From: Candidatus Woesearchaeota archaeon
GTDB lineage: Archaea; Nanobdellota; Nanobdellia; Pacearchaeales; GW2011-AR1
DNA length: 64,000 bases
Direction: 5' to 3'
Assembly (NCBI GenBank): GCA_964514585.1
Contig: CAZETU010000001.1
Span: forward strand, 210,523-274,522
The notes under the pieces were generated by a model. That model ran no database searches. It had not been told where the DNA came from and worked only from the letters and a program-made list of their open reading frames with translations. Below, one piece after another: positions 2,883 through 14,669 of this stretch; position 1 is the stretch's first letter; each line of letters opens with the position of its first letter. The translations under genes and the position numbers were made by a program.

Positions 2883-4160
2883 TCAGTAGAGGATGTTCAA
2901 ACCTGCAATATCTCCAAAGTTAAGAGTTCTTTTCCCAATATCTCCTTCCCAAGAATAGCCAAACATTGTTTGTTCTCCACATTCAGAATTATACAAATCT
3001 CCTAAACCAATTGCATGTCCAAGTTCATGTGTTAAGATATTTTGTAAATCCATTTTCAAAGGATCTCCATCTCCCCAAGCGAAATCTGTATCCAACATTA
3101 CGTCAAACTCTGTAATTTGCCTCTTTTTTGGCGGTCCTCCGAAATAACCCCAAACTGAACAAACTGCGATTACACCATCTTGATCATAGTCGCCAAAAGA
3201 GATTACATTTGTCCCATCTCCATTAATTCCGGTTGGATAACTAGAATCAAGAGTTTGAACTCCAAAGTTAATAAAATCCGTGTCAGCCCAATCTACCGGC
3301 TCATTCCATTCACCTATCGATTTATCAACCGCAGCTACAAATTGCTCTGCCGTAACGCCTTCTTCTCCTTCCGTTACACTTATTAGATAATTAGGCGATG
3401 TCCACCATTCCATATCTCTCGATATGAAACTATAACAAGCATCATCTTTTACAGGCTTAGCTTTCTTAATCAATTTAGACCCACCAATCTGTTCATGTCT
3501 GCCATCCGCATAATGAATAAACGTGATTTTTTCTTTATATTGTCCAAGTCCTGCTCCTGCAGGCGAAACATATTGCATTCCATTTAATCCAGCACAATGG
3601 TCGTTTTCAATTTGTTGTATTATTGCAAAGGCACCCCAAATTTCAGGTCCGATTTCTGTTCCATCAGCAGTCTGCCAAATCTCATCAACCAAAACAGCGT
3701 CCGTAGGTGCAGCAACTATCTTAACAAAATAGTTCCATTTACAAATCTCTCCTTTAACCTCATATTCGCCACTTTGATGATTAGTCAACCAAGCTCCAGA
3801 ACCAATATAACTCTCATGTCCATAGTGTCTATCAAGTAACCCATCGTCATCACAATCTTTATTACTTAACCATGCATCGTTCCATTTCATAGATAATTTA
3901 ATATCCCTATAATCGTGGCACCATTCCGCATCTCTGTAGGAATCACAATACCCGCCATTAAAAAATCTTCCTTGATAATTATAGCCCCATTCGTCAAAAC
4001 CAGTCGTTATAGTTTCTCCTTCAGAATTAACCAATTCTCCACTTTGAATTGTCATACATTGACCAGAAGTCTTCTCCTTATTTTCACTCCCAGCAAAAAC
4101 CAAACCAATAGTTGAAAACATCATCAGCAGAATTAAACTAAATGTTATTATTTTTTTCAT
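2883..4160 (-). CDS. Secreted metzincin (matrixin-like) zinc metalloprotease with an extra N-terminal domain
   Basis: Signal peptide; HELGHAIGLGD zinc motif; Met-turn QTMFGY; GGAGG SD motif upstream. Confidence 0.8.
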   Translation of the reverse strand: MKKIITFSLILLMMFSTIGLVFAGSENKEKTSGQCMTIQSGELVNSEGETITTGFDEWGYNYQGRFFNGGYCDSYRDAEWCHDYRDIKLSMKWNDAWLSNKDCDDDGLLDRHYGHESYIGSGAWLTNHQSGEYEVKGEICKWNYFVKIVAAPTDAVLVDEIWQTADGTEIGPEIWGAFAIIQQIENDHCAGLNGMQYVSPAGAGLGQYKEKITFIHYADGRHEQIGGSKLIKKAKPVKDDACYSFISRDMEWWTSPNYLISVTEGEEGVTAEQFVAAVDKSIGEWNEPVDWADTDFINFGVQTLDSSYPTGINGDGTNVISFGDYDQDGVIAVCSVWGYFGGPPKKRQITEFDVMLDTDFAWGDGDPLKMDLQNILTHELGHAIGLGDLYNSECGEQTMFGYSWEGDIGKRTLNFGDIAGLNILY

Positions 4161-4254: not shown

Positions 4255-6687
4255 TTACAAAAAATCCTGAGTCGGTCTCACAACAACCGAACAATCAGCG
4301 TCCTCATTTCTAAAGGCATCACGACACTTAATATAATAAGTCTCCTGATCATTCCACTCAGCAACGTGAACACTAGAATTAGAATAAGGCATCTCAACTC
4401 CCTCATCAAAACTAAAGTCACAATTATTAAACGAATAAGCACACTCACTATCCCGAACAGTCACAAGCTTCAACATCTGATCTTCCTCATAAATCCTCGC
4501 AACAACCGGCGCATTAGTATCAACATCCAAAGTAAAACTCGCAATATCTAAAGCTAAATTCCCACCCTCATCGATACACTTAACATAATAATCATGCTCA
4601 CCACCAACCAAATCTAACCTCTGCGTATGAATTCCATCATCAGTATTCGTATCATAAAACATAATGTAGTCATTCTCATTACCAGTCTCAGAATAATAAC
4701 AAACCGACCGACCATTATTACAACCATAAATCGTCTCAGCATATAACTCAACAGGCGCAGGACTAACAGCCCCAAAAATGGTCCCATTAGGCATCAATCT
4801 TCTCAACTTCAAACCAGTGCTCCCTCTGAGGCTAAACTTAAAACTCTCTTTATTCTCATTCCTATCATTCTCTTCAACTCCAGGCTGATCCTTACATCTT
4901 ACATAAAAGTCAGCTCCATCCCTAGGAATCCCACTAAGCTCACCTTGACAAGTAAACAACTGCGCCGCATTCATTTGATAAAGCTCACTCGAACAACTCA
5001 TCTCATTTTGCATATTATCATAATCCTGATCCTGAGTACTCCACCTACAAGTCGACGGCTCATTAACATAAAACTCAACCATAGCAGTATCCTGTTCCTC
5101 AGCAACACACCCACCATTAACAACCGAAGTAGCCTTAACCTGCGGAGCAGTCACGTCTGGCGACGGATCAATACAAAACCGAATAGCATACTCAGCCGAA
5201 TTCTCATTCCCATTCTTATCCTTACACCTCAAATAAAACGTCAAATCCTTCCCATTCTCCAAAACAAGACCAGTCCCCTCAATCTCAGCAGCCCCAGGCA
5301 AACTAAACTTCTCCGAATGATTATAAGAATACAAATTACTCGACCCCACATAACTAATCATCTCATCAAATGTCTCAGTATGATTAAAATCAATCTTACA
5401 CTGCGCTGGCTCATTAACAGTAATCCCAAACTCCAACGGTGTAAACGCTTTTAAGCACCCATCACTAGATTCTAAATTAACAATCTTAAATCCAGGACCA
5501 GGCGGCGAAATCTTAACATCAGTATACTTATGCCCCAAACTAAGCTCATTATAATTCGGCTTAATCACAGGCATATCAACATCCCGAGGATTAATATTCA
5601 CACACTTCTCATCCACTGTTCCCTCATTAACAATCTCACAATTCTGTCCCAAAGATTTACACCTATACTCAGAACAAGGCAAAGAGTCATCATTACAAAT
5701 CTCACAATCATTCCCTCCCGACGGAGCCTGCCACGGCATACACTCAAAAGTCACAACCTCAGTATCCATCTTCTGATACATAGCAACAAAAACAACAGCC
5801 CCAATCCCAACACCAACCAAAGGATTAGAAAGCCACTTCCAAGACTGCGACTCAAGAATTTTACTATAAGTAGAAAAAAACCTATAAGATCCAGCTCCAG
5901 CGGCCAAAGCCGTAGACAAAGCCTCAGTATTTTGTTCCTCCATCCCAAACAAACTTCCAATCATCTGACCAGCAAAATAAGCAATTCCTGCCCAAACCAA
6001 ACCAGAGACAGCTGCATCAGCAAAAGTTCCTTTAATAAGTCCAAGATGAGAAGATCCAAATTTAGTACTAGTTTGGCCAGCACTAGTAACCGGAGTCTTA
6101 GCAACAACGGAAGAAGTTCCTTCAACAGTTTTTGTAACACCATTAGAATTAGTAACGACCATATCATAAGTACCTTTTTCAGCACCAGCAGTAACAGTGG
6201 CAGTTGTTCCGTCACCTAAAGCTGCAGTTTCAATACCTTTCTCTCCCATGTATTGTAAGGTTCCACCATTATAAGTTCCAGCAGGAAGTTGGGTTGTTAA
6301 GTCAGCAGCATAAGTAGTGGTTCCAGACCAAGAGCCCGTATTGCCCGAGGCGTAATTCGTAACATCAACCTTAGGAGCATTAGAAGGAGGAGTTGGAAGT
6401 TTTGAAGTTTCCCCAGCCCCAGCGGATCCCTTAAGTCCCCCAGCACCACCAGTCTCAACAGTAGAGGTTCCTGCTTCTGCAGCATGTTGAGATGTAATAA
6501 CACTACCATCGCCAATTATACCATCACCATTAATATCATATTGAAGGTCAACTTCACTAGGAGTGCCAGCACTAACAAATTCAATATTCCCAATCATAAA
6601 TGCAAACGCAAAAACAGACAAAATAAACAAGCCTAATTCAAAACTAGCAACGGATTTTTTAACAAATAAATCAGACCCTTTTTTCAT
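4255..6687 (-). CDS. Large Cys-rich membrane/surface protein (810 aa)
   Basis: N-terminal hydrophobic segment, Thr/Gly-rich region, central Gly-rich hydrophobic helices, Cys-rich C-terminal half paralogous to the 14689-18477 protein. Confidence 0.8.
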   Translation of the reverse strand: MKKGSDLFVKKSVASFELGLFILSVFAFAFMIGNIEFVSAGTPSEVDLQYDINGDGIIGDGSVITSQHAAEAGTSTVETGGAGGLKGSAGAGETSKLPTPPSNAPKVDVTNYASGNTGSWSGTTTYAADLTTQLPAGTYNGGTLQYMGEKGIETAALGDGTTATVTAGAEKGTYDMVVTNSNGVTKTVEGTSSVVAKTPVTSAGQTSTKFGSSHLGLIKGTFADAAVSGLVWAGIAYFAGQMIGSLFGMEEQNTEALSTALAAGAGSYRFFSTYSKILESQSWKWLSNPLVGVGIGAVVFVAMYQKMDTEVVTFECMPWQAPSGGNDCEICNDDSLPCSEYRCKSLGQNCEIVNEGTVDEKCVNINPRDVDMPVIKPNYNELSLGHKYTDVKISPPGPGFKIVNLESSDGCLKAFTPLEFGITVNEPAQCKIDFNHTETFDEMISYVGSSNLYSYNHSEKFSLPGAAEIEGTGLVLENGKDLTFYLRCKDKNGNENSAEYAIRFCIDPSPDVTAPQVKATSVVNGGCVAEEQDTAMVEFYVNEPSTCRWSTQDQDYDNMQNEMSCSSELYQMNAAQLFTCQGELSGIPRDGADFYVRCKDQPGVEENDRNENKESFKFSLRGSTGLKLRRLMPNGTIFGAVSPAPVELYAETIYGCNNGRSVCYYSETGNENDYIMFYDTNTDDGIHTQRLDLVGGEHDYYVKCIDEGGNLALDIASFTLDVDTNAPVVARIYEEDQMLKLVTVRDSECAYSFNNCDFSFDEGVEMPYSNSSVHVAEWNDQETYYIKCRDAFRNEDADCSVVVRPTQDFL

Positions 6688-6721
6688 AAATACTACAACA
6701 ATCAGTTATTTATAAATTCTA

Positions 6722-7237
6722 TTATTCGATAACCCTAAATTTTCTTACATCCGCAGCTCCACTTTCTGCTCTAGCAATTACAACATATTCTCCTGGAAGT
6801 AAGGAGTCTTTTCTAACAATACATGCTTTCCCCGGCAATGCGTTATACCGATCAAAAGACTTACCATTTTTGTCTCTAAATTCATAAGAAACACGCTCTC
6901 TTTCACTATAAGCCCCTAAATCAATATATATTCCAATGTTTCTATTGTCAATAACATTTCCAGCATCATTACCCAATTCTGAAATCTCAATATTCCCATT
7001 TTCATCCTTATCATCACATTCTCTAAAATTCATTCTGGGATCAGGACTCTTATTAGTACGAGTTGGGAAATACTGTTCTGATAAAGTTTTAGCATTGGCC
7101 TGCCTATCCCTATTCCTCTGAACATGCTTCCCTGCTTCATATGTAGCAATAGGCATACATCCATTAACAGCAACAGCAGCCAAGCCAGCAAGACCAACTC
7201 CTAAAAAACCACGTCTAGTAATATTACCTTTTCTCAT
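6722..7237 (-). CDS. Orphan lipoprotein with twin-arginine-like signal
   Basis: TRRGFLG, hydrophobic stretch, then lipobox-like VNGC. Confidence 0.6.
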   Translation of the reverse strand: MRKGNITRRGFLGVGLAGLAAVAVNGCMPIATYEAGKHVQRNRDRQANAKTLSEQYFPTRTNKSPDPRMNFRECDDKDENGNIEISELGNDAGNVIDNRNIGIYIDLGAYSERERVSYEFRDKNGKSFDRYNALPGKACIVRKDSLLPGEYVVIARAESGAADVRKFRVIE

Positions 7238-7366
7238 ACAAACTACAAGAATTCAAACTTTAAAAGCTTTTCGATTTGTCATCACTCTTAAGAGACAAAG
7301 AAAGAAATTATTTAATTCTAATTAATCCATAGGTAAATTTTTATAACACTATTCTCTATTAAATAT

Positions 7367-8383
7367 ATGGATCTCATTAAACCAAAAAACTTGGAAAGGG
7401 GAGACACTATAGGAATTATTTCTCCTTCGGGAGGCCTAGCTCCGTTCGCTCCTCACAGACTAGATAATGCAATTAAATTCTTAGAAAATCAAGGGTATAA
7501 AGTAAAAGAGTTTTCTTGCACGAGGAAAAATAATGGATGGGAATCAGCTCCAGCAGAGGAAAGAGCCAAAGATATAATGGCCGCATTTTTAGACGAAGAA
7601 GTAAAGGCAATTATATGTTCAATAGGTGGGAACACTCTAAATAAAGTATTAAAATATCTAGATTTCGGAAAAATCGGAGAAAACCCAAAAATATTATGTG
7701 GGTATTCAGATATAAGCGTTCTTCATTATGCAATATTAAAAAAGACAGGGCTATCAACTTTTTACGGTCCATGTATGATGACCCAGTTTGGAGAGTATCC
7801 AAGTCCTCTGAGCTATACTATAGAATATTTTAACAAAGCAATTGTAAATGGGAACATTGGAGAAGTAGAATCATCAGAAGAATGGACTGGAGAAACCCTA
7901 GATTGGTTTGCAAAAAAAGATCTAGAAAGACCTAGAAAATTATCAAAAAACCCGGGCTATAAATGGCTAAAAGAGGGTAAAGCTAACGGAGAATTAATCG
8001 GCGGGTGTCTCCATTCCATAGCACACTTAATAGGAACAGAATATTGGCCAAATCATAATGAAAAAATTTTATTTATAGAAACACCAGAAGGGGAAGACTT
8101 CAAGAAAAGCGAATCACTGGCCGAAATTGATGCTCAGTTAGCAGACCTCGAAATTGCAGGGATTTTTAAACAAATAAAAGGCTTGGTGATAGGAAGACCT
8201 TTTGGCCAATCAGAAAAAGAAGTCGAAAAATTCAAAGAAGCAATTCTTGATAACACTAAAGATTACAGTTTCCCAATTTTATTCGGGATAGATATAGGAC
8301 ATACTGATCCCCAAATAACAATTCCTTTAGGAGCAAATGCAGATTTAGATTCCGAGAAAAATTTATTTATGATAAACAAATAA
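7367..8383 (+). CDS. Peptidase family S66, MccF-like
   Basis: GYSDIS (Ser nucleophile), FIETPE (Glu), IGHTDP (His); loop EEWTGETLDW resembling MccF-type members. Confidence 0.88.
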   Translation: MDLIKPKNLERGDTIGIISPSGGLAPFAPHRLDNAIKFLENQGYKVKEFSCTRKNNGWESAPAEERAKDIMAAFLDEEVKAIICSIGGNTLNKVLKYLDFGKIGENPKILCGYSDISVLHYAILKKTGLSTFYGPCMMTQFGEYPSPLSYTIEYFNKAIVNGNIGEVESSEEWTGETLDWFAKKDLERPRKLSKNPGYKWLKEGKANGELIGGCLHSIAHLIGTEYWPNHNEKILFIETPEGEDFKKSESLAEIDAQLADLEIAGIFKQIKGLVIGRPFGQSEKEVEKFKEAILDNTKDYSFPILFGIDIGHTDPQITIPLGANADLDSEKNLFMINK

Positions 8384-8387
8384 TCTA

Positions 8388-9491
8388 CTAATTAACTTCA
8401 TCTCTCCCAACTTCTCGAACCCCAGCGCTTGAAACAATAATTTTTTTTGGAACTCCAATATAGTCTGAAAATTTTGCCTTCGTTGTTCTTCTTGTTCTAC
8501 GGTCATCAAGTAAAACACGCCCGCCTTCAGATCTTATTTTTTCATAAACTTCTCTAGTTCTAGCATAAACATCTTCTGAATCACCAAACATTAAAACAGA
8601 AGTATCAAATGGTCTTATCTCTTCAGGCAAGTCAAACCCCCTACTGTCTCTCGAAGCATCAAATGCAGAGTAAAGCATTCTTTCAATACCCATAGAAAAT
8701 GATCCCAAAACAGGAAAAACATTTTCATTTTTATCGTTAGTGAATTTCAAAGATCTAACTCTTGGAACGTATTCATATCCCATGGCTAAACTTAATGCCT
8801 TATTTTGCTGATCATCCCAATTAACATTATCTCCCTCGGGGCATTTATAGAAATATTCCAAATCAAAATCTAAATGAGGCCCTCTTCTAACGTTTTCACC
8901 TCTCTTTCTTTTTGTTGCTTTGATCCCCAATCTATCAAAAAGACCTTCACAGGCTGATTCATATTGATTAAGTGAAAGGCCAAATCTTCTTCTATCCTCA
9001 TCAAGAGATAGCATTGCACAAACCTCAAACTCTCGCAATTTTAAAATTCCTCGAGGATCTTTTATAGGTCTTAGTAGACTCTTATAAAAAAATAATCTCA
9101 ATGGCAAAGTTCTATAAGAGACAGTATCTCTGTTTAGCCAATCGACAATTTCCATTTCATGGGTTGTAAGCCCTATATACTTTTCCATTGGGCTAGGCAA
9201 AGTAACAAACTTTCTCTCGAAAGTATCTTGGATTTCTGTTCCATCGTTTAAAACTTCACGTTTCATATAACTAGGAATTTCAATATGTAACGCGTCCATT
9301 CCTTCATGGCTTTCTCTAACTAATCTAGTAAGATTATCTCGTACCATAGATCCAATTGGAAGAGAAAAAGGCAATCCAGGATTCTTAAAAGAGAAAAAAA
9401 CTCCCCGCTCTAAAAGATCAGATGTTCTAAAATCTTGAAAATTATTAGGAATTTTAAATGAATTTGGAAAAGGCAACTTACTTATTCTCAT
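8388..9491 (-). CDS. Divergent prolyl-tRNA synthetase paralog (class IIa fold, no editing insertion)
   Basis: GLTTHE; SYRTLPLRL; degenerate motif 2 LRPIKDPRGILKLREF; motif 3 SMGIERML; short anticodon-binding-like tail VLLDDR...DYIGVP. Confidence 0.75.
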   Translation of the reverse strand: MRISKLPFPNSFKIPNNFQDFRTSDLLERGVFFSFKNPGLPFSLPIGSMVRDNLTRLVRESHEGMDALHIEIPSYMKREVLNDGTEIQDTFERKFVTLPSPMEKYIGLTTHEMEIVDWLNRDTVSYRTLPLRLFFYKSLLRPIKDPRGILKLREFEVCAMLSLDEDRRRFGLSLNQYESACEGLFDRLGIKATKRKRGENVRRGPHLDFDLEYFYKCPEGDNVNWDDQQNKALSLAMGYEYVPRVRSLKFTNDKNENVFPVLGSFSMGIERMLYSAFDASRDSRGFDLPEEIRPFDTSVLMFGDSEDVYARTREVYEKIRSEGGRVLLDDRRTRRTTKAKFSDYIGVPKKIIVSSAGVREVGRDEVN

Positions 9492-10318
9492 TTTATTCTT
9501 TTAGAAGTATAAAGCTCCGAATCTTCCCAAGCCATTTTATTAGAGAGTATCATTATGTCATATCCCATCTTTGATAAATTTTCTCTAAATAAAAACATGT
9601 ATTCCTTGTAGTTTTTCATTAATTTTTCTAAAGTTTCTGGGAGTAAATCATTAAGGTGTTTTCTGTTTAATATATCCTCGACAAATCCACTTACAACACC
9701 ATCCTTAATATAATCAAATTTAAAACTAAGTTCAACATATTTTTCTAAACCAGGCAAATCAAAAAACTTAATCCAATCTTTCTTATAGAGTGGTGTTATA
9801 TCTACATGTATTGCTTTTGAAACATCTTCAATTAGTTTTTTAGATGGAACCTCCATATAATACATAGGAACTGCTACAATAAATCCAGATTTTTTGCAAA
9901 CTCGTCTACATTCCTCAAACGCTTTTTCTCTATTGGACATTAAAGAAAGCACATTGCCAACTATTACCAAATCAAATGTTTCATCTTCAAAGGGAAGAGA
10001 ATTAACATCTGCTTTTTTAAATCTAATATTGTCCAATTTCTCCACATTAGCTCTTTTTGCCGCCTCTTTTAGACTCATTTCGTTTATATCTATAGAAATT
10101 AATTTGCAGGGAATCAGTTTGCTTAATTCAATCGCGGTAAATCCAGTACTGGTCCCAATTTCTAAAACCTTACTGTATCTATCTATACAAGTTCTATTTG
10201 CAATTTCAAAAACAGTATTTCTCCCACCCGGGATCCTGTTTGTTTCTTTAGTTAAGCCAATTAATTGATTGTAATCCATTTTATCAATATCATCCGCTGT
10301 TAATTCTTCAATTTTCAT
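9488..10318 (-). CDS. Class I SAM-dependent methyltransferase
   Basis: VLEIGTSTGF motif I, ISIDIN, ADVNSLPFEDETFDLV. Confidence 0.9.
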   Translation of the reverse strand: MKIEELTADDIDKMDYNQLIGLTKETNRIPGGRNTVFEIANRTCIDRYSKVLEIGTSTGFTAIELSKLIPCKLISIDINEMSLKEAAKRANVEKLDNIRFKKADVNSLPFEDETFDLVIVGNVLSLMSNREKAFEECRRVCKKSGFIVAVPMYYMEVPSKKLIEDVSKAIHVDITPLYKKDWIKFFDLPGLEKYVELSFKFDYIKDGVVSGFVEDILNRKHLNDLLPETLEKLMKNYKEYMFLFRENLSKMGYDIMILSNKMAWEDSELYTSKRIK

Positions 10319-10319
10319 T

Positions 10320-11456
10320 TTAAGGTTTTAAAGTTCCATCAACTCTTGGGAATTGATTAGCGCTCCAAATAAATGGCATTTCTAAAAGACCCTGTAAAAA
10401 TCTCTCCCATCCAAGTCCAAATCCAGACGTTTCTTTATAATTATTTAATTTACGAGTTTGAAGGTATGGTTCATAATCTTCTTTTGGAAGATTAAATATC
10501 TCAGATTTTTCTTCGAGCTCTTCTCTAGACCTAACCCTATGTCCACTTCCAATAGTTTCTCTATATCCTGGCCAAATAATATCTGAATTATTAGCCACTT
10601 TTGGGATTTTACCATCTATCATAGAATGATAAAAAGGAACCTCTAAGAGAGGGAATTCTCTGATTAAAACCATATTCCCCATTATTTCTGTAATTTTAAT
10701 TTCTTCCCAAGATCCAAAATGCTTAAGTGTAAATTCTTTATATTTCTCTTCGCCCGTTTCTTTGTATAAAATTTCTAGCGCCTCCTTAAATGTAATTTTC
10801 GGTATCTCTAATATGTTCTCGGCAAATTCGCCAAGTTCTCCTAGCTTCTCTTTAGATAAAAAATATGCTAAGTCCTCATTATTTTTTACCAACAAATCTT
10901 CTATTATTTTTTTAAGCAAATTAAGAGCAATAAATTCATTCTCCTTTTGATTAACTTTCCCTTCATATTCTATATGGTGGAATTCAGACAAGTGAGTTGC
11001 ATCAGATATCTCTTTCCTGAATGAATTATAAATTGAATAAACATGATTCACACCACTTTGCATCATTGCAAGCTCCAAATAAATTTGTGAAGATTCTGAC
11101 AGAAAAGCTTTTTTGGGCAAGTTAAACCAATCAAGAGTTATTGGACATGTATCTGTTGTGTAATTCAAAGCCTCTTTGCCATAAACCGCTCCAGGAGAAG
11201 ATATCATTCTTGTAGTCATTGGAAGTGCAGTAAAAAGGGCATTTAAGTTATCGAAATATTCATTTGCAGAAAGATTTATCCTATGATTAATTTTAGCTAT
11301 ATGTCCCCACATTTCATCTTCATTAAATTGATTAACTCTTTCTTTAAACTTTTCAATGGGAGGAACTACAGATAAAACATTATCAATTTTTGAGAATACC
11401 TTATTCCCTTTATAGGAAATTGTCCCATCTTTATTTGCAGTATATGGACCTAACAT
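10320..11456 (-). CDS. AsnRS/AspRS-like class IIb catalytic-domain paralog lacking the OB-fold anticodon domain
   Basis: Motif 2 SFRKEISDATHLSEFHHIEYE; motif 3 GFGLGWERF; ETIGSGHR; ATG at 11456 lies about 21 nt after a TTTTAAA box. Confidence 0.8.
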   Translation of the reverse strand: MLGPYTANKDGTISYKGNKVFSKIDNVLSVVPPIEKFKERVNQFNEDEMWGHIAKINHRINLSANEYFDNLNALFTALPMTTRMISSPGAVYGKEALNYTTDTCPITLDWFNLPKKAFLSESSQIYLELAMMQSGVNHVYSIYNSFRKEISDATHLSEFHHIEYEGKVNQKENEFIALNLLKKIIEDLLVKNNEDLAYFLSKEKLGELGEFAENILEIPKITFKEALEILYKETGEEKYKEFTLKHFGSWEEIKITEIMGNMVLIREFPLLEVPFYHSMIDGKIPKVANNSDIIWPGYRETIGSGHRVRSREELEEKSEIFNLPKEDYEPYLQTRKLNNYKETSGFGLGWERFLQGLLEMPFIWSANQFPRVDGTLKP

Positions 11457-11532
11457 AAGAAAAGAACAAATTCTCAATTTAAAAACATTACTATAGAATA
11501 GTTACAGTCAATTCTATACAATTTTATCTTTT

Positions 11533-13314
11533 CTATACCCGACCACTAATAGCCGCAATCACTCTTCCAGAAAACCCACCACTAACAATATTCACAGTAT
11601 TCGGAGCAAACTCTTCCTCGCTCCCATCAACAGTCCAGACATATCCATCATCAGTATATTCTCCCTGATAATTAACATAACCACCACAGTCACCTAGAGC
11701 AGTACAAATCCTATTAGCCCCAAGAGCCCATTCCTCTTCCAAACACTCACATCCCTCAACACACTTCCAATTATCATCAAGCAAGCCCTTTTCATAAGTC
11801 ACAATACATTTAGCACTAGCCTGCCCACAAATCTGCGACGCACTTCCCTCTTCCCAAAAAGCAAGTCCAGGCGGAAAATTAGGCAAACAAACCCCGCTAG
11901 CTCTATTAGTCACAGTTTTCTCAACTACTTCTTCATCATCATCTCCACCAAAAATAGACTTCCCAGTTATCGGAGCAACAACATTCCCAGTATAAGTCGG
12001 ATTGCTAAACGATCCAGTCGAAGTAGGATTAGAATAAGTCGAACTACCAACTCCACCACCATCACTACTTCCAGCCCCAATTAAAAGCCCAGCAATCGAA
12101 GGCTCCCAAATACAATCCCTCCTATCAATATTCAAACAATCATCCTCATCCTCTTGAGCCGTACAATCCTGCCACCTATTAACTCTACATCCAGAAGTCC
12201 CAAAATCCCCAGCGCTCGTCTCAATATAACTCCACAAACAAATCTCATTCCTATAATCAGCACAAGGCTCAACCCTCACCTCACCATCAACACAAGTTTC
12301 CCTAAAATACCTCGACCCAACCTGGTCGTTCCCCTCGCCAACATTATCATCATAAACACACCACGCTTCCCCATTAATTCTTTTCTCACCATCAGCATCC
12401 ACACACTCAGTCCTCTGACAATAATAATCACTATCCGCAGGCCCACCAAAAACCCCTTCCCACTCAGCACACCGCGACCCTAACATATAATCACAGTTCC
12501 CACAATTCTTATTCGACCCATCATTAGGATCACAAATATCGTCAGCCTCGGCAACCTTCCCATTATTCCAACTCCTAACCTTATCCGAAGAATAAATATT
12601 CTCCCTATTCCCACAAGAATCAATCCAATAAACCTGACCCCGATAACACGAAGTAGAAGTCTGCTTAGCACAAGACGTACTTAATTCCTCAGCCGAACAA
12701 AGAAAGTCCTCATAAAAAGTCCTCTGCTCCGACAAGGCAACTTCAGTACCATTCACCGTCTCAACTCTCTCCCCAGCCCCACAATCAGCCCGAGTCGTAA
12801 ATTCACAAACCCTATCAAAATCCTTCTCATAAACACAAGCACCCATATCCTGAGCCTGTGCCGTTGCAATACAACTAACCTCATTAGTTATATCAGACCT
12901 ATAATCATTCTCAACTCCAAACAGCGTCGACAGTCTCTTACATCGAACCAACGGAACAAACGCAGCCTGATCAGCAATTATACAACATCCCAACTGACAC
13001 TGCGGCACCTCTTCAACACTTCGAGAATCCCACGTCCCACCAGCGTCCGAACAAACTCTCTGCGGCGTATTCCCCATACAAATTCCTTCCTCACTATCAT
13101 AACAAGTCCCAAGCTTACAATAAGAAGTAGTCTCACAAGACGTCGGCGAACTCTTAAATCCAGAATCACAAGTTTCCTCAGGAGCATTAATACACCATCC
13201 ACCACTCTCAGTCTTTTCACAACAAAAACTCGGGTCAGACATCACAGTCTCAGCAGCAACACTAAAAGTAAAACAAACCACAAACACACTCATCAACAAA
13301 CTCAACTTATTCAT
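11533..13314 (-). CDS. Secreted Cys-rich protein (593 aa), paralog of the N-terminal half of 14689-18477
   Basis: Signal peptide; VGSRYFRETCVDGEVRVEPCADYRNEIC versus VGSRHWKYVCSQGVVQIEPCADYRNQIC. Confidence 0.8.
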   Translation of the reverse strand: MNKLSLLMSVFVVCFTFSVAAETVMSDPSFCCEKTESGGWCINAPEETCDSGFKSSPTSCETTSYCKLGTCYDSEEGICMGNTPQRVCSDAGGTWDSRSVEEVPQCQLGCCIIADQAAFVPLVRCKRLSTLFGVENDYRSDITNEVSCIATAQAQDMGACVYEKDFDRVCEFTTRADCGAGERVETVNGTEVALSEQRTFYEDFLCSAEELSTSCAKQTSTSCYRGQVYWIDSCGNRENIYSSDKVRSWNNGKVAEADDICDPNDGSNKNCGNCDYMLGSRCAEWEGVFGGPADSDYYCQRTECVDADGEKRINGEAWCVYDDNVGEGNDQVGSRYFRETCVDGEVRVEPCADYRNEICLWSYIETSAGDFGTSGCRVNRWQDCTAQEDEDDCLNIDRRDCIWEPSIAGLLIGAGSSDGGGVGSSTYSNPTSTGSFSNPTYTGNVVAPITGKSIFGGDDDEEVVEKTVTNRASGVCLPNFPPGLAFWEEGSASQICGQASAKCIVTYEKGLLDDNWKCVEGCECLEEEWALGANRICTALGDCGGYVNYQGEYTDDGYVWTVDGSEEEFAPNTVNIVSGGFSGRVIAAISGRV

Positions 13315-13631
13315 TTTAATTCCCCCTTTATTTTTACAATTACTTTCTTTAAGGATGGCAATTCGTTAATCAGTTCCATAATTACTTCCATAGGTACATC
13401 ATTATATACATGACTTATTAAATTTCTACAGGCATAAAACTTTTTCCAATTAATCTCATTATGTTTCTTTATAATCTCACGAGGCAATTTATCAATATTT
13501 TCTCCTATAACCTGAAATCTCATAAGCATAGCATCCCAAACCGTCTTATCCTCCAATGATTTATTCAAATCTCCCTCAATCCTTCCAATCATCTCCTTAA
13601 TCAAATTTAAATTTAAACTATATTTTAACAT
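13311..13631 (-). CDS. HEPN (HepT/DUF86-like) RNase toxin
   Basis: DAMLMRFQVIGE; R-X4-H motif RNLISH. Confidence 0.85.
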   Translation of the reverse strand: MLKYSLNLNLIKEMIGRIEGDLNKSLEDKTVWDAMLMRFQVIGENIDKLPREIIKKHNEINWKKFYACRNLISHVYNDVPMEVIMELINELPSLKKVIVKIKGELK

Positions 13632-13911
13632 AAACCACCTCTTTCTTTATATAATTTAATTCAGGTCTCAACGATTGAGAAGAAACCAAGTCAATTTTTC
13701 TCTTAAACAAATTTTCTAAATAAAATAAAACCTCAAAATAATTTTTACCCAAATTCTCTTTTTCAAGAGTAACCAAAAAATCAATATCACTTCCTCTCTT
13801 CTGTGTTCCTTTTAGATATGAACCAAATAACCCAATTTTTTTTACACCCCTCGCTTTCAACTTTTCTTTTCTTTTCTCAATCTCACTAATTATTTTTTTC
13901 TTATTCATCAT
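13618..13911 (-). CDS. Minimal nucleotidyltransferase (MNT) antitoxin
   Basis: GLFGSYLKG...SDIDFLV motif; ATG at 13911 overlaps the upstream TGA (ATGA). Confidence 0.87.
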   Translation of the reverse strand: MMNKKKIISEIEKRKEKLKARGVKKIGLFGSYLKGTQKRGSDIDFLVTLEKENLGKNYFEVLFYLENLFKRKIDLVSSQSLRPELNYIKKEVVYVKI

Positions 13912-14669
13912 GCATACCCCGGAGGCCAAGCCAAACTTCGACTAGCAAATTTAAATTTATTTCCATAAACCTTATTCTCCAACATGTAAACAGTAGTGCC
14001 ATCTCCACGCTTAATTTTATCAATCACATAATCAGGATAAAAGCCCATCATACTCGTCACATCACTATCCCCATACTTAACTTCAAATTGTAAAATCGAA
14101 GTCGCAATCATCAAAGTTTCATAAAGCGCAGAATTTATTCGAACATTAAACTTCGTAAATCTCTGACTACCAACGGTAGTAGGAGCATTAACCTCAACCC
14201 TAATCACACCAGGCTCAATCACAACATCATAATTAATTTCCCCACTCACAACATCATAACCCTGAGACTTCAGTTCATTAATCGAATTACTATAACAAGT
14301 ATCCATACTATCCCGAATAGAAATCTCCAACTGATCATCAAAAGTCTGCTTCAAAAACGGCCTCTGCACAGTACAAGTCTTATAATATTCACTAGTATAG
14401 CAAAGATAAGTCAAGTCCTCTCCCTTATACGCATAAGTAAACTCAGGATCAATCAACCCAGCCTTCGCCTCAAGATCCTCCATCACCTGCTCAACTGCAT
14501 CCTCAATACAAGATTCAAACCCAAGCTTCTTCCCTTCTTGAGAAAAATAAGTCGGCCGCGCCCACAAAAAGAAAACCAAAATAGCCGAAACAATAACAAT
14601 CGCCACTAAAATAAACATAGTCACCTGACCCTTTTTGCCACTGCCCCTTTCCATGCTCATTATAGCCAT
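13908..14669 (-). CDS. Pilin-like protein with class III signal peptide
   Basis: KKG-QVTMFILVAIVIV; paralog of 18477-19238. Confidence 0.75.
   Translation of the reverse strand: MAIMSMERGSGKKGQVTMFILVAIVIVSAILVFFLWARPTYFSQEGKKLGFESCIEDAVEQVMEDLEAKAGLIDPEFTYAYKGEDLTYLCYTSEYYKTCTVQRPFLKQTFDDQLEISIRDSMDTCYSNSINELKSQGYDVVSGEINYDVVIEPGVIRVEVNAPTTVGSQRFTKFNVRINSALYETLMIATSILQFEVKYGDSDVTSMMGFYPDYVIDKIKRGDGTTVYMLENKVYGNKFKFASRSLAWPPGYA

Follow-up and report, generated by a model that had tools for sequence, protein, structure and literature searches.

The closest described counterparts of the locus reported here, a four-gene cassette at positions 7,367 to 11,456 of a 64,000-nucleotide stretch of DNA from a Candidatus Woesearchaeota archaeon (the whole stretch is hereafter the window), are the agrocin 84 and microcin C gene clusters. 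In the annotated region of pAgK84, agnA, annotated as 'Agrocin84-synthetase', is followed by the S-adenosylmethionine (SAM) methyltransferase gene agnB1, by agnB2 for a resistant leucyl-tRNA synthetase (LeuRS) and, further on, by the MccF-like agnC5. A 2021 review listed Ensifer and actinobacteria as the only bearers of agn-like clusters, called the agrocin pathway unknown and proposed AgnA for the key biosynthetic step of agrocin 84 (PMC8323819). For microcin C, MccD and a pyridoxal phosphate (PLP) decarboxylase install the aminopropyl group, and members of the S66 (MccF), GNAT (MccE2), HIT (MccH) and S51 (MccG) families have been found experimentally to detoxify the processed compound (PMC8323819, PMC9239234).

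We found that a cassette related to both clusters is present on the chromosome of this DPANN archaeon, and we consider it likely to be a horizontally acquired, minimal cluster of the agrocin 84/microcin C kind, which would couple MccB-independent aminoacyl-nucleotide synthesis to self-immunity. Our literature searches found no description of the cassette in archaea or in the Candidate Phyla Radiation (CPR).

The four genes and their families

The open reading frames (ORFs) of the window were called and then searched against Pfam, NCBIfam and PDB sequences, which gave the families of all four genes, each an intact ORF (Table 1); the source genome comprises 1.04 Mb in 18 contigs and is 89.65% complete. 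The original prediction, made from the sequence, had described a tightly coupled minus-strand operon encoding an asparaginyl-tRNA synthetase (AsnRS)-like catalytic domain without its anticodon domain, a SAM methyltransferase and a degenerate prolyl-tRNA synthetase (ProRS) paralog, with an S66 peptidase gene converging 4 nt away, and of this description only the word degenerate had to be given up. The junction of the AsnRS-like and methyltransferase genes reads TAA-A-ATG, a 1-nt gap that places the transferase gene directly 3′ of its AgnA-type neighbor, as agnB1 follows agnA on pAgK84; the methyltransferase and ProRS-like genes share an ATGA overlap, and the stop codons of the ProRS-like and S66 genes face each other across 4 nt.

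The first protein of the operon matched Pfam tRNA-synt_2 (D/K/N, PF00152) with an E value of 4e-31 and gave no Pfam match to the OB anticodon-binding domain PF01336. It scored 141.8 bits against the NCBIfam asnS model NF003037 (cut-off, 414) and 101.6 bits against the models of archaeal asparagine synthetase A (AsnA; cut-off, 389), and its AsnA and EpmA scores were all far under the cut-offs. AsnRS enzymes were its closest solved relatives in the PDB sequence search (E 6e-20) and the top structural matches (TMq 0.78-0.79) of its AlphaFold model (pLDDT 90.8), in which residues 1-110 contained no OB barrel. AgnA of pAgK84, which is likewise devoid of an anticodon domain, aligned over its full length (BLASTP, 26% identity over 345 aa, E 1e-22), and tblastn of the protein against plasmids also found agnA. 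Homologues form more than 120 database clusters at 62-84% identity. The protein retains motif 2 (SFRKE..HLSEFHHIEYE), GSGHR and motif 3 (GFGLGWER), which hardly vary across the family, irrespective of the partner gene. Judged from these comparisons, the gene encodes a class IIb catalytic core derived from AsnRS and is the conserved anchor of a cassette family; like the ProRS-like protein, its product keeps the class II residues for ATP and adenylate, which would allow it to bind ATP and an alpha-amino acid and to form an adenylate. An AgnA/AsnRS-like domain was also seen at the C terminus of three proteins of 1300-1570 aa (P0233, P0260, and P0265; 26-29% identity), which are possibly fusions with biosynthetic modules.

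Truncated class II aminoacyl-tRNA synthetase (aaRS) paralogues are well known in nontoxic roles, as in EpmA/PoxA, the amino acid:carrier-protein ligases and AsnA, and it could be asked if the paralogues of the cassette aminoacylate a protein, a tRNA or a metabolite, with the methyltransferase methylating and the S66 enzyme trimming a peptide. The weak, subthreshold NCBIfam matches of the anchor to archaeal asparagine synthetase A and the anticodon-type domain kept in the ProRS-like protein are consistent with such transfer. However, the AsnA and EpmA scores are far under the cut-offs, the partners are exactly those of the microcin C and agrocin families, the related loci contain no conserved carrier-protein or target-protein gene nearby, and the cassette is accessory and spread horizontally across domains, all of which renders this explanation very improbable.

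The second protein belongs to the class I SAM-dependent transferases (Pfam Methyltransf_11/25/31, E about 1e-20), and its best solved relative in the PDB search was MccD (5fcd, E 6e-21), the next match being at 3e-12. It is 43% identical to AgnB1 of pAgK84 over the full length (E 9e-74), 43% identical to a Xenorhabdus homologue and 33% identical to Escherichia coli MccD over 185 aa (E 2e-27), with the family-specific N-terminal region included. The transferred group could be methyl or 3-amino-3-carboxypropyl, and methylation itself is something that we infer.

The convergent gene matched the N and C domains of Pfam Peptidase_S66 (E 4e-37 and 5e-31), and in the PDB it matched MccF-family entries at E 1e-59 to 1e-47 versus 1e-14 to 1e-6 for LdcA. 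Its product, encoded by the sole S66 gene of the genome, is 34% identical to AgnC5 of pAgK84 (E 1e-65) and 33% identical to E. coli MccF, which comes from an mcc plasmid. MccF cleaves processed microcin C, and its W186 stacks on the adenine (PMC8323819). In our alignment, the equivalents of MccF S118, E243, and H311 as well as W186 were kept in the window's enzyme and in each of the 14 cassette homologues inspected. At the places of MccF N220, R246, and K247, which presumably bind the Asp side chain, the window's enzyme has H, E, and E. By these matches and the retained triad and W186, the enzyme is of the MccF type rather than the LdcA type, as had been predicted.

Its only NCBIfam match, to a muramoyltetrapeptide carboxypeptidase model (113.7 bits), is the one finding in line with cell-wall-type peptide recycling, in which the enzyme would be an LD-carboxypeptidase and the other genes unrelated neighbors. 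Since that score is far under the 378-bit cut-off, MccF-family structures match at least 35 orders of magnitude better than LdcA, W186 is conserved and the gene linkage recurs across phyla, we regard recycling as hardly credible.

The third product of the operon was only barely recognized as a synthetase by Pfam (tRNA-synt_2b, 30.8 bits, just above the cut-off); it reached 107.9 bits against NCBIfam proS (cut-off, 558) and E 1e-23 against ProRS in the PDB, with the alignment in two stretches. Its AF2 model (pLDDT 91.6) matched Rhodopseudomonas palustris ProRS best (TMq 0.85-0.87) over the catalytic and the anticodon-binding domains, revealing an anticodon-binding domain and a ProRS catalytic core of the bacterial type that lacks the INS editing domain. 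In its family, TTHE (the TxE motif), REF, the Arg residues of motifs 2 and 3 and DDR of the anticodon domain are retained, but the DaYSF motif and the Glu of RDE are gone (canonical motif 2 being fRDE ... DaYSF). Thus, the predicted ProRS paralogy stands, and as far as its motifs tell, the protein is derived, not decayed.

This family evolves much faster than the anchor, with 35-51% identity to the nearest relatives and about 16 clusters. In a maximum-likelihood tree, the derived ProRS-like proteins formed a clade (support 96/91) apart from canonical ProRS, and the window's protein fell in a subclade of 12 (support 100/100), whose sister subclade includes a 383-aa protein of the agn-like cluster of Xenorhabdus bovienii (28% identity to the window's protein, E 8e-48), a cluster with its own full-length leuS, as well as proteins of DPANN cassettes with a LeuRS-like gene. 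Two loci hold both a derived copy and a canonical INS-less ProRS, and the one that was scored (L023) reached 558.3 bits, right at the cut-off. An archaeal-type ProRS scoring above the NCBIfam cut-off is encoded on another contig of the window's genome. These results indicated that the ProRS-like protein, in line with the original prediction, is not the only ProRS of the genome; since it belongs to a separate derived clade, also represented in the Xenorhabdus cluster with its own LeuRS, it is not a housekeeping ProRS and probably not an immunity copy. The derived ProRS-fold protein is a component of agn-like clusters whatever type of aaRS adjoins it, and the window's copy is unlikely to be either a resistant target or a marker of proline. 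Proline specificity was rejected as a reading of this gene, because members of its clade also accompany LeuRS-type partners and a LysRS-like gene replaces it in the nearest cassettes; as a swappable module, the second aaRS-like gene tells little about proline.

AgnC1 has been described as a remote ProRS-like fold (PMC8323819). Homology of the window's protein to AgnC1 was considered but could not be shown (BLASTP E 0.64; hhalign with a 22-sequence profile, E 0.09, probability <1%); the 383-aa Xenorhabdus protein gave a weak pairwise match to AgnC1 (E 2e-5 over 85 aa).

Spread and modularity of the cassette family

Among the genomes of the same genus that were searched, 2 of 36 contained the anchor, and 24 other genomes of the order yielded one occurrence, a pseudogene. 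A family scan with one genome per species gave 51 loci, whose ORFs were all called and clustered. They are spread over DPANN archaea (Woese-, Pace-, Nano-, Micr-, Parv-, and Aenigmarchaeota), other archaea (Marsarchaeota and the haloarchaea Natrinema and Haloarcula) and bacteria (Patescibacteria, Paenibacillus, Microcoleus, Zixibacteria, and a gammaproteobacterium).

Partner genes were counted in the 31 nonredundant loci that have the AsnRS-like gene and enough flank. The methyltransferase was present in 25 of them, the S66 peptidase in 21 and a second aaRS-like gene in 24, 14 of which have the ProRS-like type, while at least one of S66, HIT, GNAT, and S51 was found in 25. The co-occurrence of the families, put forward with the original prediction as a check, was thus borne out. 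Further recurrent partners are a PLP-dependent Orn/DAP-type decarboxylase, radical SAM enzymes, an APH-type kinase, ABC exporters and a C39 peptidase, and the recurrent aaRS partners are LeuRS-, MetRS-, LysRS-, and AspRS-like genes as well as bona fide AsnRS, ProRS, or LeuRS.

The similarity of the window's cassette to its nearest relatives was discordant between genes. In L011, the anchor is 82% and the S66 protein 77% identical, and a LysRS-like gene takes the place of the ProRS-like one; L049 (anchor, 76%; S66, 75%) has a LeuRS-like gene together with a 35%-identical ProRS-like gene; and the nearest ProRS-like gene (50%) belongs to L054, where the anchor and S66 identities are 68% and 55%. 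Given this discordance and the near-invariant active site of the anchor, the anchor seems to run a constant reaction, with the partner being swapped by recombination.

Bacterial relatives occur in antibiotic clusters, in Xenorhabdus with an extra leuS and an exporter and in Exiguobacterium with sugar-nucleotide genes, and Natrinema has both an extra leuS and exporters. The cassettes of Natrinema gari JCM 14663 (L046:4038-12042) and Natrinema altunense AJ2 (L047) comprise a methyltransferase, a LeuRS, an AgnA-type gene, a two-gene ABC exporter and an S66 gene; their LeuRS is full length and of the archaeal type (948 aa, 968 bits), giving an agrocin-84-like layout. A plasmid of Exiguobacterium sp. 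Helios (L089, NZ_CP053558.1 69633-82550) has genes for an AlaRS-related protein and a SAM methyltransferase together with an AgnA-type gene, set among CDP-sugar genes and genes for a glycosyltransferase, an ATP-grasp enzyme and a deoxynucleoside kinase, apparently a nucleotide-antibiotic cluster built on the same pair. A family of about 327 aa with no Pfam match lies directly beside the AgnA-type gene at L030:9980-10963, L032:9148-10134, L038:5886-6863, and L045:9131-10159, usually with a HIT hydrolase and without an S66 or ProRS-like gene; it may be an alternative partner enzyme.

The makeup of these loci bears on whether the island could serve resistance only, with the S66 enzyme hydrolyzing and the SAM enzyme modifying aminoacyl-nucleotide antibiotics made by neighbors, and with the aaRS-like proteins offering insensitive or decoy sites. 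ORF calls and Pfam revealed no exporter gene in the window, which has no obvious precursor gene either; some related cassettes have bona fide extra AsnRS, ProRS, or LeuRS copies; the ProRS-like protein retains an anticodon-type domain; and stand-alone MccF homologues that confer resistance are common (PMC8323819). On the other hand, the invariant anchor has no tRNA-binding domain and so cannot stand in for an aaRS, its homologue AgnA bears the annotation of a synthetase and is the enzyme proposed for the key biosynthetic step (PMC8323819), and MccD/AgnB1-type enzymes are biosynthetic in the single case studied. Moreover, the anchor and the methyltransferase are the most constant pair while the detoxifying enzymes (S66, HIT, GNAT, and S51) vary, a pattern expected of a producer whose immunity enzymes are interchangeable. 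We therefore judge a resistance-only island to be unlikely, and we retain synthesis coupled to self-immunity as the better explanation.

Insertion site and genomic background

The cassette is part of a 4.8-kb island that separates ORFs of 593 and 810 aa (Table 1). In three congeners without the cassette (G005, G009, and G012), the two flanks are a single ORF of 1387, 1365, and 1308 aa, respectively, in agreement with the predicted interruption of a surface-protein locus; the 593-aa gene is core in the genus (38/41 genomes). At the same junction, congener G026 carries other cargo, a radical SAM/SPASM enzyme and a TehB-like methyltransferase, and the junction looks like an insertion hotspot within a surface-protein gene. 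The cassette of archaeon BMS3Abin17 is found at the opposite side of a homologue of the 810-aa flank. Mobile-element borders were sought and rejected, as no flanking direct or inverted repeats rose above background, and the island contains no integrase or transposase. The block had been described as more AT-rich than its flanks, and this was confirmed (33.1% GC versus 41-44% in the flanking genes and 37.1% in the genome); at the 10th percentile of the 4.8-kb windows of the genome, the island is AT-rich but not extreme.

The two other cassette-bearing congeners, G001 (L012) and G003 (L010), have it at genomic sites different from that of the window. The layout is readable in G001 only, the G003 contig ending after the methyltransferase gene, and comprises an AgnA-type gene, a ProRS-like gene of the other subclade, S66 and GNAT genes and a reversed methyltransferase gene. 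The sites and the layout suggest separate acquisitions within one genus.

Table 1. Features of the island, its surroundings and related genes elsewhere in the genome (window positions unless a contig is given)
Feature	Position	Strand	Description
S66 peptidase (MccF/AgnC5-type)	7367-8383	+	338 aa; Pfam Peptidase_S66 N + C; presumed self-immunity enzyme
ProRS-like protein, derived ProRS fold	8388-9491	-	367 aa; Pfam tRNA-synt_2b
AgnB1/MccD-type class I SAM-dependent transferase	9488-10318	-	276 aa; Pfam methyltransferase domains
AsnRS-like AgnA-type enzyme	10320-11456	-	378 aa; first operon gene; Pfam PF00152 tRNA-synt_2
Upstream region of operon	11457-11532	-	TATA-like TTTTTAAA at 11485-11478; putative promoter, judged from sequence
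Upstream region of S66 gene	7238-7366	+	TATA-like TTTTTATAA at 7338-7346; putative promoter, judged from sequence
Inserted island	6688-11532	no strand	between two halves of surface-protein gene
ORF inside island	6722-7237	-	171 aa; no family assigned
Flanking ORF	4255-6687		810 aa; no Pfam domains; stays open
Flanking ORF	11533-13314		593 aa; no Pfam domains; stays open
HepT-like RNase ORF	13311-13631		Pfam PF01934, E 3e-13; overlaps next ORF
103-aa ORF	13618-13929		probably MNT-type partner of HepT-like RNase
425-aa ORF	2883-4160		weak matrixin (M10) and carbohydrate-binding-module matches
AspRS and GatB/GatE-type genes, own genome	G000:C2:77965-79353, C2:80956-81840, C2:89748-90548		AspRS bacterial-type, 462 aa, 686 bits on bacterial model; two GatB/GatE-type genes

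The operon and the S66 gene each have a TATA-like box of their own, about 25 nt 5′ of the first ATG; read from the sequence, TTTTTAAA occupies about -29 to -22 relative to the operon's first ATG. This ATG, at 11456, is preceded by an in-frame TTG at 11477, and the upstream region also contains an 8-nt inverted repeat (tatagaat/attctata). A 4-codon ORF in the same region, MFLN, was considered as an MccA-like precursor and rejected, as it is not conserved in related loci. Short Asn-ending ORFs 5′ of the anchor were found in only 3 of about 38 loci and are unlike one another, and ThiF/MccB (PF00899) had no match in the 89.65%-complete genome or in the related loci inspected.

The genome also encodes AspRS, class II LysRS, ThrRS, SerRS, HisRS, GlyRS, PheRS alpha, GatB, and GatE, and we found no canonical AsnRS in the 89.65% of it that is available. 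With AspRS and GatB/GatE at hand, Asn-tRNA is presumably made by transamidation, so that an AsnRS-directed inhibitor would spare the producer; a producer without AsnRS could even be intrinsically insensitive to an Asn-AMP mimic. Judged from this gene content and from the presence of the anchor in only 2 of the 36 congeners, neither the AsnRS-like nor the ProRS-like protein is needed for translation.

Among the neighboring genes, the 171-aa ORF inside the island had no Pfam, PADLOC or convincing Atlas match. The HepT-like ORF and its overlapping 103-aa partner would form a toxin-antitoxin pair, which adjoins the island and is duplicated in congener G026 (L087), and the 425-aa ORF is absent at the matching position of L083-L085 and L087.

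Could the compound act inside the cell that makes it? As an intracellular toxin-antidote or abortive infection system, it would be kept in check by the S66 enzyme and would stabilize the island or stop translation upon virus attack. The minimal four-gene form without an exporter, the promoter-like region of the S66 gene's own and the adjoining HepT-type pair are compatible with such a function, as are the very patchy spread, the shuffled modules and the insertion into surface-protein genes, which are also features of defense islands. Against it, PADLOC identified no known defense system in the window, a generic methyltransferase-domain match aside; the cassette was not found on viral contigs, where aaRS-type matches were just 26-28% identical; and the ABC or MFS exporters of some relatives suggest that at least part of the family exports its compound. 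Taken together, we hold this function to be quite unlikely.

Proposed pathway and comparison with known systems

The chemical steps, product, target and export described below are proposed from the observed homologies, catalytic residues, gene order, co-occurrence, patchy distribution and insertion site. The product of the three-gene operon would be a stable aminoacyl-adenylate mimic, most probably an N-acyl phosphoramidate nucleotide, whose synthesis would need neither a ribosomal precursor peptide nor an MccB/ThiF enzyme. The AgnA-type enzyme would bind ATP and an amino acid, or an amino-acid amide, and, by analogy with what has been proposed for AgnA (PMC8323819), make the acyl/phosphoramidate link to AMP, and the identical active site of the anchor in every cassette is what points to a constant core step. 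The AgnB1/MccD-type enzyme would then alkylate the product, most plausibly on the phosphoramidate, as MccD does, and the ProRS-fold protein, an exchangeable accessory with an adenylate-forming site, would supply or attach the variable part. The separately transcribed, convergent S66 enzyme would cut the acyl-N bond inside the producer and so provide self-immunity; the target of the compound would be a tRNA synthetase, either of competitors or of the host cell. The original prediction that the cluster makes or detoxifies a methylated aminoacyl-nucleotide is supported overall; that it produces the compound rather than only detoxifying it we infer, as we do the methylation.

Two variants of this pathway can be envisaged. 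In the first, agrocin-like one, the amino-acid part would vary between cassettes and the co-encoded full-length aaRS would be resistant targets, a variant supported by the LeuRS copies of pAgK84, Xenorhabdus, and Natrinema. In the second, a constant warhead would come from the invariant anchor and degenerate aaRS-like enzymes would add variable groups, which is supported by the invariance of the anchor and by near-identical S66 proteins alongside different partners.

Several points weigh against synthesis coupled to self-immunity. No member of the cassette family has a known product or activity, and the role of AgnA is only proposed (PMC8323819). The window has neither an exporter nor a full-length resistant aaRS, and production for export is therefore not evident. 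The 5′-phosphoramidate of agrocin 84 is not alkylated, so that MccD is the sole analogy for the methyltransferase step. Neither BLASTP nor hhalign tied the ProRS-like protein to AgnC1, and with H, E, and E at the three pocket positions of the S66 enzyme, the acyl group is probably not the aspartate of microcin C.

More speculatively, and with less confidence than we place in the pathway as such, the AgnA-type enzyme and its MccD/AgnB1-type partner may constitute a new machinery for making P-N bonds, one that takes the part of MccB but acts on a free amino acid. The four-gene cassette might then be a minimal natural pathway to an aminoacyl-AMP mimic, used by DPANN and CPR episymbionts as a weapon against, or a means of control over, the tRNA synthetases of hosts or competitors, with the aaRS-like modules diversifying the compound.

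The way in which agrocin 84 acquires its phosphoramidate link has been an open question ever since pAgK84 was sequenced in 2006, and the cassette points to the likely genes of the core chemistry: AgnA, AgnB1, and an MccF-type peptidase are a conserved mobile core in roughly 50 relatives across two domains of life, and this core exists alone, stripped of agrocin-specific tailoring. To this the window contributes a copy on a DPANN chromosome whose insertion site is precisely defined, the minimal form of four genes and the placement of the ProRS-like module. The cassette suggests that aaRS-poisoning nucleotides are common among ultra-small symbionts thought to lack secondary metabolism. A four-gene system is small enough for direct reconstitution, and the idea can be tested in the cultured carriers N. 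gari, N. altunense, X. bovienii CS03, and R. rhizogenes K84.

Archaeal asparagine synthetase A (AS-AR; PDB 1NNH and 3P8T) and bacterial AsnA resemble the anchor in being a class IIb core without an anticodon domain. However, the PDB matches to AS-AR (E 3e-7 to 1e-6) are much weaker than those to AsnRS (6e-20), AS-AR has 294 aa versus 378 aa, and the anchor, unlike AsnA, lies within an accessory cassette and not in amino-acid metabolism.

Phosmidosine is a prolyl N-acyl phosphoramidate of 8-oxoadenosine that is O-methylated on the phosphate, and its prolyl and methyl-phosphoramidate groups might fit a ProRS-like enzyme and a methyltransferase, but proline specificity is doubtful because the ProRS-like module also occurs in LeuRS-type clusters. 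We know of no phosmidosine gene cluster for comparison. Natural phosphoramidate nucleotide antibiotics are few, and phosmidosine, a product of Streptomyces durhameusis, is among them (PMC6429109).

Unlike microcin C clusters, the cassette has neither an MccC exporter nor a conserved gene for an MccA-like peptide, and MccB/ThiF was not found in the genome; the adenylyltransferase is replaced by aaRS-derived enzymes, and the side-chain pocket positions of MccF differ. Shared with microcin C are the MccD-type SAM transferase, the MccF-type peptidase with its triad and W186 and the convergent arrangement, since mccF converges on mccB-E in E. coli as the window's S66 gene does on the operon. Sister cassettes add GNAT (MccE2 type), PLP decarboxylase (MccE1 type), HIT, and S51 genes to these likenesses.

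The agrocin 84 cluster (pAgK84, R. rhizogenes K84) has 17 genes on a plasmid versus four on an archaeal chromosome, and AgnA is just 26% identical to the anchor. AgnC1-C7, proposed for the pentanamide, are absent from the island, as are the exporter and the remainder of the 17 genes, and the full-length resistant AgnB2 LeuRS has no counterpart in the window, so that of the parallel drawn in the original prediction, the part on aaRS for immunity did not hold. The homology itself is real: AgnA, AgnB1, and AgnC5 all have homologues in the window, agnA and agnB1 are adjacent in the same order, with an aaRS-family gene next in line, and a ProRS-like homologue is further shared between the window and the agn-like cluster on the X. 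bovienii CS03 megaplasmid.

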